A stretch of 63,286 nucleotides of DNA, filler included, from Craspedostauros australis (taxonomy: Eukaryota), in NCBI GenBank assembly GCA_030167865.1. It is 4 parts of 4 records of this genome, joined end to end, with 100 filler letters (N's around TTAATTAATTAA, not from the genome) between each part and the next. Parts side by side here need not be neighbours in the genome. Positions count along the whole stretch, not along the records: positions 55,351 to 60,375 come from JALAGF010004050.1; 3 more parts are not named here. The stretch is one strand, 5' to 3'. Under the pieces are notes generated by a model, which saw only the letters and a program-made list of their open reading frames with translations, did no database searches and was not told the DNA's origin. Positions within the stretch are counted from its first letter, which is position 1. Each line of letters starts with the position of its first letter. The translations under genes and the position numbers were made by a program. This document shows, in pieces, positions 25,121 to 60,819 of the stretch.

Positions 25121-25220
25121 NNNNNNNNNNNNNNNNNNNNNNNNNNNNNNNNNNNNNNNNNNNNTTAATTAATTAANNNNNNNNNNNNNNNNNNNNNNNN
25201 NNNNNNNNNNNNNNNNNNNN
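25121..25220. other. Assembly gap with artificial TTAATTAATTAA six-frame-stop linker
   Basis: 100-nt block of Ns with a central ttaattaattaa; the same design occurs at 55251 and 60376. Confidence 0.97.
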
Positions 25221-55250: not shown

Positions 55251-55350
55251 NNNNNNNNNNNNNNNNNNNNNNNNNNNNNNNNNNNNNNNNNNNNTTAATT
55301 AATTAANNNNNNNNNNNNNNNNNNNNNNNNNNNNNNNNNNNNNNNNNNNN
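55251..55350. other. Assembly gap with artificial TTAATTAATTAA linker
   Basis: N block with central ttaattaattaa. Confidence 0.97.
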
Positions 55351-56412
55351 ATCAACGCTCGTGGAATGGAGTTCAATTGGCTACCAACGGTGAAGATCTT
55401 CATCCGAGGACGCATGCGCAACCTTTTCTTCGAACACAGCACGATTCGCTACGACGAGATTCGGAAGTACGCCGTGCGGTACTCGCTCAAAGCCACCCGA
55501 CACGCCCAGATCGCGATGCAGATCGGTCGGTGCATTCAAGACTCTCTGACCCAGGACGCCAGATCCCGGTTGCAGCTGGAGTCACAGCGGTACACAATGA
55601 CCACCGTTGAAGGGGTGGTGCACGACGGACTCCTGATGTTCAAGGTACTCATGGAGAAGTCGCTGGTCAACACCAACGCGACCGTCAGCATGCTTCGCAG
55701 CAACCTGGCCAACCTGCCAACGAAGATCGGCGAGCTCTCCGACAACATCACGGAACTCAATGAGTACGCCAAGCATCAGCGCAGCGAGCTGAACGCCCGT
55801 GGGCAAGTCACCCACGATCTCTTGGTCTACCTCTTCGAAGCCTACAAGCAGGTGAACGACGAAGCCTTCCGCCGGTACATCGAAAGCAAGGAAGACCAGC
55901 ACCACGAAGGAGAAGCTCTCAGCGCAGACTCGCTCATGGATCTCGTCGAGAAGAAGTTCAAGACGATGATGGAGCGCGGCACCTGGAAGGCGCAGACCGA
56001 CGACCAGAAGCACATCGTGGCCCTCACGGCCGAGATCGAGCGCATCAAGAAGAACCGAAACGGGAACAAAGGAAAAGAGAAGAAGGGCAAGCCAGAGAAA
56101 GAAGGCAAGGGCAAGAAGGGCAAGGACAAGGACAAGGACGGCAAGAAGGCTGGATCCGGAGACACTCCGTGGTTCTACCAACCGCCGGCCAACGGAGCGT
56201 CCAAGTCCAAAAAGGACCCGAGCGGAAAGGACGTCCACTGGTGCCCGAATCACGGAACCAACGGAAAATGGGTCCGACACAAGCCATCCGAGTGCAAGGC
56301 CATCAATGGAGGGGCCAACAAGGGTGGGCAATCCGGCAAAGCCGGAGGAGACGGTGCTTCAGGAAACAAGCCCCAGGTGGCCATGCCACATGTGGTCGAA
56401 GAGGAGTACTGA
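55351..56412 (+). CDS. gag: Retrotransposon Gag (5'-truncated)
   Basis: Open from the contig start to TGA 56410-56412. Helical capsid-like region, Lys-rich stretch and atypical zinc knuckle WCPNH...KWVRHKPSEC. Confidence 0.85.
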   Translation: MNARGMEFNWLPTVKIFIRGRMRNLFFEHSTIRYDEIRKYAVRYSLKATRHAQIAMQIGRCIQDSLTQDARSRLQLESQRYTMTTVEGVVHDGLLMFKVLMEKSLVNTNATVSMLRSNLANLPTKIGELSDNITELNEYAKHQRSELNARGQVTHDLLVYLFEAYKQVNDEAFRRYIESKEDQHHEGEALSADSLMDLVEKKFKTMMERGTWKAQTDDQKHIVALTAEIERIKKNRNGNKGKEKKGKPEKEGKGKKGKDKDKDGKKAGSGDTPWFYQPPANGASKSKKDPSGKDVHWCPNHGTNGKWVRHKPSECKAINGGANKGGQSGKAGGDGASGNKPQVAMPHVVEEEY

Positions 56413-59400
56413 ATCACAGGCCGGAGGGTGTGGGCATTTGTGTTCACCCTCTGCAGGCCATTCATCGTGGCGTTACTGGCTACACTCTGCATCAGCGCAA
56501 TCGCATGTGGGGATGAGGAGTCAGTGACGACCGTGGTGGTGGTCGCCCTGGTAACTTGGGTCGCTCAGCGCATCGCGCTGATCCAACGAGACTCTCGCAA
56601 ACATACCAGATGGCGATCAAGCCACACGAAGTGCCGACGCTTCTACGCGCGTGGCACCAGAACCAGACCACCCAGGATCGGATCCAAGGACGGCAGACCC
56701 TCACGGAGAATGCTGCATCTTTGGACAATCGCCGACCAGGAGCAGCAGCACGCGCACACCATGCCGCTTGCCAGATTCGATTCAGATTCATTCGAGATGG
56801 CAGTGGACAACTGTGCCACGACCTCCTTCACGAACAACAAGGAGGACTTCATCGGAGATCCAATCAAGATTGACAAGGTGGTGAAAGGAGTGGGAACGCG
56901 GAAAGTGCATCTGCAAGGCAAGGTGGAATGGCGAATCGAAGACGACAACGGGAATCGGCACGTCATCGAGCTGGACGGGGTCATCTACGAACCTGGCCTA
57001 CCGTTTCAACTGCTCTGCCCACAGCACTGGGCGCAATGCAGCAAGGATCCAGAAGGTACAGGATGCACCACCCTTGGGAATCGCATGGAGATATTCTGGG
57101 ACCGACGAAGACACCAGAGGTCGATACCTCTCACATCCTCCAACATTGGGATGATCCGGACAGCAACCGGATACAGCGGAGTTCGCAAATTCTGCATGGC
57201 TACCGAAGTCCCCATATCCACGCCAGACAACCAACTGGACGCGACCCACCTGGTGAGCGACGACGAAGAGTCAGTGGTGATGGACGACGACGAAGGCAGC
57301 GTCAATCAGAGCGAACAAGCCATTGACACCAGCGGAGCCGAAGACGACCTCAGCAAGGAGCCAACGCGAATCGACTTCCGGGACATCCCCTACCGAGCGC
57401 CCATCGACCATGCATCCGAGTTCAGCACCACTCCAACCGCGGACATGCTCTGGCTGCACTACAAGCTGGGACACGTCTCATTCAACAAGATGCGGACCAT
57501 GGCTTCCAAGGGAGAGATCCCAGCGAAGTTCAGGGACTGTCAGATTCCGGTCTGCGCATCGTGTGAGTATGGGAAAGCGACCCGGCGACCTTGGCGGACC
57601 AAGGGAGGCAACCAGCAGGTGAGCAAGCTCATCCCCATCAACAGGCCAGGAGACTGTGTGTCGGTGGACCAAATGGAGTCACCTACCCAAGGCTTCATCG
57701 GTCAGATCAAAGGTAAGCTCACCATCCAGAGATACCGAGCTGCAACCATCTTCACGGATCATCACAGCCGCTTCAGCTATGTGCACTTGCAAAAGAGCAC
57801 CAACGCTGAGGAGACGCTGAATGCCAAACGAGCATTCGAGGCGTACGCCAGAACCTACGGAGTCACCATCCGGCACTACCATGCCGACAATGGTCGATTT
57901 GCGGAGAACAAGTTCCTCTCGCATGTCGATCGCTCCAGCCAGACCATCACTTTCTGTGCGGCGTATGCTCACTTCCAAAACGGGGTGGCAGAGAAACGCA
58001 TCAGAGACCTGCAGGAGGCGGCCAGAACCATGCTGCTGCACATGCATGTCCGATGGAAGGAGGCTGCATCAATCTCACTGTGGCCCTATGCTTTGCGGAT
58101 GGCCAACGAGGTGATGAATGCAACTCCCAACCCTGTGGTAAATCACATCACACCAATGGAGAGATTCTCTGGATCAGCAATCAAGCCCCAGCTGAAACAC
58201 TTTCACTCCTTCGGATGCCCCACATACGTGCTCAACCCTCGTCTCGCGAACGGCCAATCACAGCCGAAGTGGATGTCCAAGGCACGGATCGGCATCTACC
58301 TCGGACTGTCACCCAGACATGCAAGGTCAGTGGCACTCATCCTGAACCCAAGGACCGGACTCGTGTCACCGCAGTTCCACATCAAGTGCGACGACATGTT
58401 CGAGACCGTGGCAGGAACATCGGGAACGAACCATGGCAGATGGAAGGAGCTGGCGGGCATCAGAAAGGCAGAAGTCATCAAGCGCTCCAAGGGAGCGACC
58501 GGAACCAAAGGGTTACGCTGGTCTCCCGAGCACCGATCGCCACCACAGACCAAGGAGGCATCGGCGGAGCCAGACGAACCGCCCGAAGAGTTCGACGCGC
58601 CAGAGACGGAGGCAGCAGACAGCATCGACATCGGCGAAGCACCCAGCGACACAGCAAGCCCTGCGACGCCAGGCGACTCCCAGTCGGCACCTGCATCCAT
58701 CCTGAGACGCTCCAACAGACATCGGACACCGTCCCGAAAGGTCCGGGAGAACGGGGACACCGAAGTGGTGGCCCTGCCCGGAGCATTGGAAGTCGCCAAC
58801 ACCTTCTCGAATGGAGAGAGCTTCGACACCAACGAGACGTCGGACCCAATCGCATTCGCAGCTTCGGCCGATCCAGACACCATGTACTACCATCAAGCCA
58901 TGAAGCAACCGGATCGCCTCAAGTTCAAAGAAGCAATGCAGGCGGAGATCAACGCCCACCATGAGAATGGTCACTGGGAGGTCGTGAAGAGATCCGAAGT
59001 GCCTGAAGGAACCAAGGTGGTCACATCAGTGTGGTCAATGAAGCGAAAGCGGCGCATCAAGACCCGAGAGATCTACAAATGGAAGGCGAGACTGAATGTC
59101 CATGGCGGCCAACAAGTGAAAGGCGTCAACTTCTGGGAGACCTACGCCCCAGTCGTCACGTGGATGTCCATCAGACTTGTTCTCATCCTGTCAATTCTCA
59201 ACAACTGGCACACTCGACAGATCGATTTCGTGCTCGCTTATCCACAGGCTGAAGTGGAGACCACCATCTACATGGAGGTTCCAGTCGGGGTAAGTATCGG
59301 AGAGAGCGACAACAAGGACCATGTCCTCAAGCTGGTGAAGAACTTGTACGGCCAAAAGCAAGCCGGACGAGTCTGGAATCAGCACATGCATCGGGGATTG

Positions 59401-60375
59401 CTGGACGTCGGATTCACCAGAAGCAAGGTGGACGAGTGCGTCTACTATCATGGCAAAACCATGTTCCTGGTGTACGTGGACGACGGAATCCTGGCCGGCC
59501 CCAGCTCGGAAGAGATCGACAGACTGCTCGCTCAACTCAAGCAGCGGTTCAACATCACGGACGAAGGGGACCTGTCGGACTACCTGGGTGTGCACGTCAC
59601 TCACCTGGAAGACGGACGCATCAAGCTCTCGCAGCCACACCTCATCGACCAAATCATCAAAGACGTCAACTTTCGGCCCAACACCAGACCGAGAGACTCG
59701 CCTGCGCTGACCACGAAGATACTGGAGGCTGATGAGGACGGAGAGGAGCACAACGCAACCTGGAGCTACCGGTCAGTCATCGGCAAGCTCAACTTCCTGG
59801 AGAAGTCCACTCGAGGGGAGATTGGGTATGCGGTGCACCAAGCCGCCCGATTCAGTGCCAACCCAAAGAAGTCACACACTCAGGCAATCCACCTCATTGT
59901 GCGATACTTGATGGCAACCAGAGACGAAGGGATCATTCTGGATCCAAACGACAAGGCATTCGAGTGCTTTGCTGATGCTGATTTCGCCGGACTGTGGAAC
60001 AAAGACACCGCAAGAGACGACTCGGCCACTGCACGGTCCAGAACCGGCTACCTGATTCGATTTGCTGGATGCCCAATTGCATGGGCCTCCCGCTTGCAGA
60101 CAGAGATCGCTTTGAGCACAACTGAAGCTGAAGTGATTGCATTGTCCACTGCTTTGCGCGACGTGATTCCAATGATGAACCTCATGAGCGAGATGTGCGA
60201 CAACGAGATTGTACCAGAGAAGTACAAGCCACGAGTGTACTGCAACGCGTTCGAAGACAACTCAGGAGCCTACGAGATCGCAAAGTTCCCAAAGATGCGC
60301 CCCAGAACGAAGCACATCAACATCAAATACCATCACTTCCGATCATACGTGGATCGCAAACTCATCGAGATCTAC
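56413..60375 (+). CDS. pol: Retrotransposon Pol (protease, integrase, reverse transcriptase, RNase H), 3'-truncated; same frame as gag
   Basis: Protease AVDNCAT. Integrase HYKLGH...CASC and DDE residues (SVDQ, HADNG, NGVAEK). RT KARLNVHG, QIDFVLAY, LYGQKQAG and YVDD. RNase H FADADFA, STTEAE and RTKHINIKYH. No internal stop over ~1320 codons. Confidence 0.95.
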
Positions 60376-60475
60376 NNNNNNNNNNNNNNNNNNNNNNNNN
60401 NNNNNNNNNNNNNNNNNNNTTAATTAATTAANNNNNNNNNNNNNNNNNNNNNNNNNNNNNNNNNNNNNNNNNNNN
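60376..60475. other. Assembly gap with artificial TTAATTAATTAA linker
   Basis: N block with central ttaattaattaa. Confidence 0.97.
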
Positions 60476-60777
60476 AGATCATCACATTTTCACCACAGAA
60501 AACAACTTTTCATCAATCGCCAGCCGTGACATGACGACCGCAGAGCGATGACGCCCCTGACGGATCATGAGCGCAGATGTCCCACAAGGGTCAACGTGAT
60601 AGCATTACCAAAAGCAGGTGTCAACTGTCTCCGGTGCCGCCAGCAAAACCAGCCTCGCCTTCAGCGCTTCTCTGTTTGGACTCCCCTCTCTGTCGGGAAA
60701 TGAATCGAACAGCTTCACTCCCTGTCTCAAACTTCCGTCAGCATGGAAAAGAAATTGGTATCAAGAGCAAGAGCGTC

Positions 60778-60819
60778 AGGGTGCGAGCAAGGGTGCGAGC
60801 AAGGGTGCGAGCAAGGGTG
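60778..60819. repeat. 12-bp tandem repeat (AGGGTGCGAGCA)x3.5
   Basis: Perfect copies ~360-400 nt upstream of the DAACS ATG. Confidence 0.93.

Follow-up and report, generated by a model that had tools for sequence, protein, structure and literature searches.

The window analysed here, a 63,286-nt stretch of DNA from Craspedostauros australis in which four contigs are joined end to end, carries the inner part of a Ty1/copia-type (CoDi-like) retrotransposon whose gag and pol lie in one reading frame and are separated by a single TGA codon at 56410-56412. From comparison with related sequences we consider it likely, at a probability of about 0.72, that this TGA is the natural end of gag and a site of programmed UGA readthrough in a diatom-type Ty1/copia retrotransposon. 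Most ribosomes would halt at the TGA and yield Gag; a minority would insert an amino acid at the UGA, stay in frame and cross a 121-codon linker into the protease, integrase and reverse transcriptase (RT)/RNase H, yielding Gag-Pol, and the outcome would be a low ratio of Gag-Pol to Gag. In the window copy, the stimulator would most likely be the RNA structure that begins 6 nt past the UGA (a hairpin at 56419-56459 stacked on another at 56463-56539); its UAC-UGA-A is not a leaky context. Most relatives carry GAR-UGA-C in place of such a structure or besides it.

A single stop codon between gag and pol in a shared frame

The features of the junction, in window coordinates, are as follows.

56410..56412, plus strand: in-frame UGA that ends gag, the proposed readthrough codon (from the sequence, open reading frames (ORFs) and relatives)
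56413..56418, plus strand: 6-nt spacer AUCACA between the UGA and the first stem (from the sequence and fold)
56413..56775, plus strand: 121-codon linker that leads from the stop up to the protease motif and stays open in the frame of gag; its first part is hydrophobic and its later part basic
56419..56459, plus strand: hairpin 1, with a 12-bp stem, a 3-nt bulge and a 14-nt loop (predicted fold)
56463..56539, plus strand: hairpin 2, a long stem-loop of 77 nt that starts 3 nt past hairpin 1 (predicted fold)
56635..56688, plus strand: RRFYARGTRTRPPRIGSK, a basic motif of the linker that is conserved and precedes the first in-frame ATG (linker alignment)
56710..56712, plus strand: first in-frame ATG after the stop, at codon 100 (from the sequence)

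The junction reads GAG GAG TAC TGA ATC ACA GGC CGG AGG GTG, as a first-pass annotation of this DNA had given it. That annotation had also placed gag and pol in the same frame with one TGA between them, and this is borne out by the ORFs, since the one at 55366-56412 is co-framed with the next. The TGA is the sole stop in 1,670 codons, the gag frame being otherwise open to the end of the contig at 60375, and the first in-frame ATG past the stop, which had been put at about 100 codons, is codon 100 exactly.

The linker has 0, 3 and 1 stops in frames 0, +1 and +2, respectively, and the chance of a stop-free linker after shuffling is 0.014. Linkers of three relatives, designated L002, L003 and L007, extend over 83, 176 and 198 codons to the protease motif, with shuffle chances of 0.005, 0.0006 and 0.0001; in these and in the window, frame 0 holds no stop, versus one to six stops in each other frame. 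G+C at third codon positions exceeds that at second positions over most of the junction, and the two are level near 56566-56626. In the linker alignment, an LCRP motif stands a few codons past the stop in the window, P0154 and P0157 (P numbers denote protein relatives), and RRFYARGTRTRPPRIGSK aligns with RF-Y[VI]R...RIG.K in L003, P0153, P0154, P0157, P0168 and others. Both motifs precede the first ATG in the window. The open linker and its conserved peptide motifs therefore disfavour an intron over this region and a separate AUG start; a very short intron or a non-AUG start would be compatible with the linker evidence.

The part of Pol that only readthrough would produce begins with a hydrophobic stretch resembling a membrane helix (56437-56493 in the window), followed by the basic motif. 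The most hydrophobic 19-residue segment of the window linker scores 2.22, at residue 9, and the best such segments in the four linkers tested (window, L002, L003 and L007) range from 1.64 to 2.22. A hydropathy of at least 1.6 was reached in 31 of 68 N-terminal extensions of pol (P0153-P0272), versus 2 of 80 control stretches taken after the protease motif.

Conservation of the stop among relatives

A protein query of 620 residues (gag, junction and protease, with an X at the stop) was compared with 1.84 billion representative proteins and returned 4,010 matches, of which the best 150 are all at most 557 amino acids long. Among these 150, 149 lie inside gag, and the remaining one, P0101, is a pol fragment whose start lies in the linker. 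The knuckle-like motif W..H..C occurs in 125 of the 150; the other 25, fragments or variants without it, were omitted from the tail counts. In the knuckle-bearing proteins the chain ends a median of 43 residues after the motif (10th-90th percentile 35-53), and in 112 of the 125 there are at least three Asp or Glu residues among the last 12; these tails align with the ...VVEEEY of the window element. A search with pol found 509 relatives at E<=1e-20, and in the best 120 of them (1,121-1,633 amino acids) a hidden Markov model (HMM) of gag found no gag, with the fused control P0152 being detected. As far as the protein sequences tell, gag and pol are separate ORFs throughout this large family, and P0152 is the sole fused exception seen. 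A word-based protein search with residues 200-560 gave no match among long proteins, and viral contigs gave none with the whole protein or the gag alignment.

DNA of relatives across the junction came from ten metagenome loci and from 11 loci on contigs that had been binned into genomes with bacterial labels. The metagenome loci were obtained with a 4-sequence gag alignment, alignments of 42 and 8 gag sequences being too diverse for locus scanning; the genome contigs gave no match with the gag alignment, and the pol alignment then gave the 11 loci. Left out of the junction counts were the decayed L004/L005/L010 family, L006, L008 and L009 (gag broken, no pol), L012, L013, L017 and L018 (short of the junction) and L019, L020 and L021 (fragments, no gag by HMM). 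In all eight relatives that are informative on frame, a gag with an acidic tail ends in one TGA and the same frame is open at once into pol, whose frame was confirmed by tblastn with the pol of the window. The stop contexts, with the open codons after the TGA in the relatives, are as follows.

Window: GAGTAC TGA ATC
L001: AGCAAA TGA TGG; the same TGA, with only 12 codons after it
L002: GACGAA TGA CAG; 564 open codons
L003: AGCGAC TGA CGT; 186 open codons
L007: TCCGAA TGA CTC; 1,082 open codons
L011: CAGGAA TGA CTG; 1,425 open codons, then TAG; gag internally deleted
L014: GAAAGT TGA CGA; 350 open codons; the frame shifts further on
L015: GAGGAG TGA CGG; 581 open codons
L016: GACTAC TGA CTA; 302 open codons, then TAG

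Gag identity among these elements is 22-47%, and they are therefore old, separate lineages. TGA stands at the end of gag in 9 of 9 relatives with junction DNA, and in 10 of 10 elements when the window is included. The first-pass annotation had held that a sense codon in other copies would reduce the stop to a simple nonsense mutation; none was found, the homologous stop after an acidic tail being present in 112 of the 125 scorable gag relatives and being TGA in all nine with DNA. The conservation of the in-frame stop that it had named as a check is likewise seen, and the exceptions are the fused P0152 and one decayed family. In that family (L004, L005 and L010), gag has an early TGA and a tail ...SDE[EG]SDF followed by TAG; L005 runs on in frame past the TAG, and L004 and L010 are shifted by an indel. 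The junction accordingly has three marks expected of programmed readthrough: a single stop in a shared frame, conservation of that stop, and a frame that is coding from the first codon after it.

The elements L011-L021 are eukaryotic copia elements on bins labelled as Planctomycetota, Cloacimonadales, Janthinobacterium, Cytophagales and others, and L011 sits on a contig of 350 kb; these contigs are probably mis-binned eukaryotic DNA. In L015 (1-3743) and L016 (1-4322), the 3' end of pol comes first, followed by approximately 700-1,100 nt and then by gag and the start of pol, an order that is expected for tandem elements sharing a long terminal repeat (LTR) or for a circular form.

Stop context and stems across elements

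A C at position +4 follows the TGA in 7 of the 9 relatives (binomial P ~0.001 at p=0.25). The last residue of gag is Glu in 81 of the 125 protein relatives and Asp in 7, and one position earlier the counts are 39 for Glu and 31 for Asp; that Glu is favoured at the last residue and not before it suggests that the codon, rather than the charge, is what is constrained. From these patterns, the stop context looks to be under selection.

Structure was assessed by folding the 40 nt that start 3 nt past every in-frame codon and ranking the gag stop within its own element. The stop ranks 4/1,655 in the window, 2/1,015 in L002, 3/1,510 in L011, 5/977 in L015 and 6/863 in L016; the ranks of L003, L007 and L014 are taken up below, where the evidence is weighed. 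Fisher's combined P is 8e-8 with 40 nt, 3e-6 with 50 nt and 6e-5 with 60 nt, the three sizes tried, and the ranks are conservative because neighbouring positions overlap. The main stem starts 6 nt after the UGA in the window, 7 nt after it in L001, L002 and L015, 8 nt in L011 and 5 nt in L016. Spacer and stem recur in some of the relatives: a stable stem 5-8 nt past the TGA occurs in 6 of 10 elements, with no common sequence, and no such stem is found in L003, L007 and L014. The window and L001, the two elements that lack a +4 C, each have a stem, and all three elements without a stem have a +4 C, which suggests that stem and +4 C are two interchangeable stimulators; with ten elements, this is only a pattern. 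From the arrangement of stop, frame and stem we infer that ribosomes read through the UGA and that the stem raises the rate at which they do so.

Predicted RNA structure after the stop in the window

Hairpin 1 folds as the first-pass annotation had described it: after a spacer of 6 nt, 56422-56430 pairs with 56445-56453 (with one G-U pair), and the stem is extended by GGCC at 56419-56422 pairing with 56456-56459. Alone it has -22.2 kcal/mol; the 61-nt fold at this place has -24.7 kcal/mol (z -2.1), and 4 of 200 shuffles are as stable, so that, taken alone, the stability of hairpin 1 is modest. Hairpin 2 has -36.1 kcal/mol (z -3.6), and the two together (56410-56545) have -63 kcal/mol (z -4.0); in both cases, none of 200 shuffles is as stable. 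Of 979 overlapping 130-nt segments of the contig, the one from 56416 has the lowest energy, at -4.0 standard deviations (sd) after regression on G+C. This came from a scan in 5-nt steps; a coarser z-score scan, in 40-nt steps, cut through hairpin 2 and for that reason missed the junction. A stem 6 nt past the UGA with so high a rank within its element is in keeping with the structure-stimulated, murine leukaemia virus (MuLV) type of readthrough signal. The short context UGA-C(U) of the Sindbis or Tj1 type is absent from it, the window having UGA-A. No known Rfam family was found at the junction.

The segment after hairpin 2 (56531-56660) also folds strongly, with -58.1 kcal/mol and -2.9 sd after regression on G+C, and approximately 250 nt past the stop are unusually structured. 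The arms of hairpin 1 (56419-56459) code for G-R-R-V and T-L-C-R-P. P0154 and P0157, with a pol approximately 50% identical, have LCRP at the corresponding position, and the conservation lies either in the peptide or in the RNA of the 3' arm.

Weighing of alternative explanations

Any explanation must account for what is observed directly: the arrangement of gag, stop and pol, its persistence in relatives, a linker free of stops and stems that recur. Splicing or an internal start, which the first-pass annotation had named as ways in which Pol might arise without readthrough, are both unlikely, given a frame open from the first codon in the eight informative relatives and the window and linker motifs that lie upstream of the ATG. 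Splicing would require an intron that spans the UGA and is removed from some transcripts, so that spliced RNA gives Gag-Pol and unspliced RNA gives Gag. The window does hold 81 frame-preserving GT-AG pairs that span the stop, and the fused P0152, without a long linker, looks as a spliced product would. However, an intron needs no frame that is open from the very first codon after the TGA, as it is in the window and seven relatives, and conserved peptide motifs lie inside the region; moreover, the conserved acidic tail ends exactly at the stop, which suggests a functional Gag C-terminus. The donor consensus is GTRAG or GTAMG; the 150 nt that precede the stop hold no such donor in the window element, L002 and L003, and one in L007. 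Drosophila copia is the precedent here, since it sets its ratio of Gag to Pol by splicing (PMC2194720). Production of Pol apart from Gag, through an internal promoter and subgenomic RNA, an internal ribosome entry site, a start codon other than AUG or reinitiation past the stop of gag, appears to us equally improbable. A minor promoter has been described in the junction of the Candida albicans element Tca2 (PMC2194720), and in-frame Met codons are found at linker codons 9 (L007), 52 (L003) and 68 (L002). Independent initiation, however, needs neither a pol frame identical to that of gag, as found in all eight informative relatives, nor a single stop without a gap; the first ATG of the window, at codon 100, lies past the conserved linker motifs, and no in-frame ATG overlaps or adjoins the stop.

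That the window holds a dead copy in which the TGA is a chance nonsense mutation is highly improbable. A single copy was available in the window, on an unplaced repeat contig without LTRs, which would suit such a reading, but the TGA is the sole stop in 1,670 codons and a stop stands at the homologous end of gag in relatives only 22-47% identical, so that the comparative data contradict it. Diatoms have selenoproteins, and the UGA could in principle be decoded as selenocysteine, with the hairpin acting like a Sec redefinition element; the stop is UGA in 10 of 10 elements and a stem follows a few nucleotides later. We regard this, too, as very unlikely. Apart from a chance snoRNA match, a search of the contig at E<=5 found neither a selenocysteine insertion sequence (SECIS) nor any other Rfam family, the contig being without a 3' untranslated region, the usual site of SECIS, and selenocysteine would have no apparent function at the linker. 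Furthermore, both the +4 C and the Glu codon that precedes the stop are hallmarks of near-cognate readthrough (PMC10085805). We also reject a -1 frameshift, as the -1 frame closes at 56514-56516 and the homology to pol is in the gag frame. We likewise reject UGA as a general sense codon, since the 1,670 codons of the element's frame include a single TGA, and L011 and L015 have one in-frame stop over gag and the first 300 codons of pol.

Several observations weigh against programmed readthrough at this TGA. The gag stop ranks only 51/645 in L003, 467/856 in L014 and 833/1,468 in L007, so that these elements lack unusual structure after the stop and the stem is therefore not universal, and the stems of the relatives cannot be aligned with one another. 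The UAC UGA A of the window is without the Glu codon and the +4 C of its relatives. In addition, the structural signal hinges on the boundaries of the folded segment, since 100 nt from the TGA, which cuts hairpin 2, gives a z of only -0.97. The copies compared are partly not intact: gag has an internal deletion in L011, and L014 and L016 are no longer intact deeper in pol. In P0152, gag and pol are fused, with approximately 20 residues from the gag tail to the protease, which shows that the wider group can do without the stop; this protein is also without the hydrophobic and basic linker, and the long linker may go together with the stop, as judged from P0152 alone. Finally, the UGA-plus-pseudoknot junction of Tca2 gave no readthrough in a Saccharomyces cerevisiae reporter, and its mechanism was called non-canonical (PMC2194720).

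Relation to known systems and significance

Gag-pol readthrough is textbook knowledge in gammaretroviruses and is thought to be rare in Ty1/copia elements. In-frame stops between gag and pol are described for MuLV (UAG and a pseudoknot) and for the copia element Tca2 (UGA and a pseudoknot), and SIRE1 has one between pol and env (PMC2194720). Our element resembles MuLV in having gag and pol in one frame, one stop, a short spacer, a stable RNA structure and, if readthrough occurs, a Gag-Pol fusion made at a low rate (PMC2194720). MuLV differs in its UAG, its pseudoknot and its purine-rich spacer of 8 nt, where we find UGA, the 6-nt AUCACA and two plain predicted hairpins; it is a retrovirus, and ours is an algal Ty1/copia retrotransposon. 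Tca2 (pCal) is closer: it, too, belongs to Ty1/copia, its gag and pol are divided by a UGA in the same frame, and a short spacer separates this stop from a downstream structure (PMC2194720). The first-pass annotation had regarded readthrough as unusual for copia elements; the readthrough reading gained support from the comparison, and for copia the combination of UGA and downstream structure was already on record from Tca2 (PMC2194720). Tca2 is, however, a single fungal element, whereas the layout here is common to many deeply divergent lineages, mostly with the +4 C and the Glu codon.

The context seen in most relatives has its own parallels. An AA dinucleotide before the stop and a C after UGA promote readthrough, and GAA-TGA-CT is strictly conserved in fission-yeast Ty3/gypsy elements with an in-frame stop (PMC10085805). 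These elements (Tj1, Tcry1 and Tosmo1-3) likewise have an in-frame TGA between gag and pol, and L011 (GAA TGA CTG) and L007 (GAA TGA CTC) share the eight bases with them; the GAA TGA C of L002 resembles their context in part. They are gypsy elements from fungi, for which the available text of that paper reports no downstream hairpin, while the window copy, with UAC-UGA-AUC, would rely, if on anything, on structure. In Sindbis virus, a C directly after the UGA is enough to make the context leaky (PMC2194720, PMC10085805); 7 of 9 relatives have this C, whereas the window has A at +4.

For diatom elements, the first-pass annotation knew of no earlier description. Maumus et al. 2009 list ORF1 and ORF2 for CoDi elements and note that gag and pol are separated by a single stop or frameshift or by none (PMC2806351), so the interruption itself was on record; the accessible portion of their account gives no mechanism, stop context or RNA structure. 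A full-text search for readthrough of gag in diatom retrotransposons returned no paper on the subject as judged by title or abstract opening, and one for stop codon readthrough in copia gag surfaced only the Tca2 and fission-yeast papers.

Judged from the sequences, readthrough is the best-supported reading, and the finding would be a lineage-wide case of a recoding signal of an already known type. We lean, with distinctly less confidence than for the window element and at little better than even odds, towards a broader proposal: that the whole ancient diatom Ty1/copia lineage, with its thousands of protein clusters, makes Pol by UGA readthrough, that the signal consists of two parts traded off against each other (GAR-UGA-C and a stem-loop 5-8 nt downstream), and that the linker adds to Gag-Pol a hydrophobic and a basic segment absent from Gag. 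If this is true, the main retrotransposon lineage of diatoms, whose elements are induced by stress, for instance by nitrate limitation, and shape diatom genomes (PMC2806351), would normally rely on readthrough for its expression, and the lineage would be the first broad copia clade with readthrough as the rule; Tca2, the one copia case studied, remains unexplained. The elements would also offer a natural series of signals, with and without the +4 C and with and without the stem, for side-by-side study in transformable diatoms. In addition, since gene callers annotate gag and pol of such elements as two separate genes, diatom annotation would have to allow for readthrough.

The element and its contig

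The element occupies the third of the four contigs, 5,025 nt in length. The contigs are joined in the window by linkers of the form N44-TTAATTAATTAA-N44 at 25121-25220, 55251-55350 and 60376-60475, which place a stop in all six frames; features across these points are artefacts. The remaining features of the element are as follows.

55351..60375, plus strand: unplaced contig with the inner part of the Ty1/copia-type (CoDi-like) retrotransposon (from Pfam and the joining linkers on both sides)
55351..56409, plus strand: gag, 5' end cut by the contig edge (from homologues and motifs)
56776..60375, plus strand: pol with protease motif FDSDSFEMAVDN, integrase, RT and RNase H, 3' end cut by the contig edge (from Pfam and the pol search)
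57424-57576, plus strand: gag_pre-integrs (Pfam)
58180-58320, plus strand: SH3_retrovirus (Pfam)
58975-59676, plus strand: RVT_2 (Pfam)

The Pfam order on pol is gag_pre-integrs (residues 338-388), SH3_retrovirus (590-636) and RVT_2 (855-1088, E 1.9e-45), so that both other domains are ahead of RVT_2 and the integrase comes before the RT; an RT of the RVT_2 type with the integrase upstream of it marks the element as Ty1/copia. No LTR was found on the contig at 55351-60375, which ends inside gag and inside RNase H, and a second copy of the element was not found within the window. The contig edges truncate gag on the 5' side and pol on the 3' side, the latter in RNase H by comparison with P0152. 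Gag probably begins upstream of the ATG at 55366, because homologues have approximately 80-120 extra N-terminal residues. The gag protein has the knuckle-like W..H..C motif and the acidic tail VVEEEY, and among its best three Atlas clusters, the one with recorded taxa is assigned to Eukaryota, with Bacillariophyta the commonest phylum among the five members for which the phylum is known. On the next contig, at 60776-60815, a 12-nt unit, GGGTGCGAGCAA, is present in three tandem copies.

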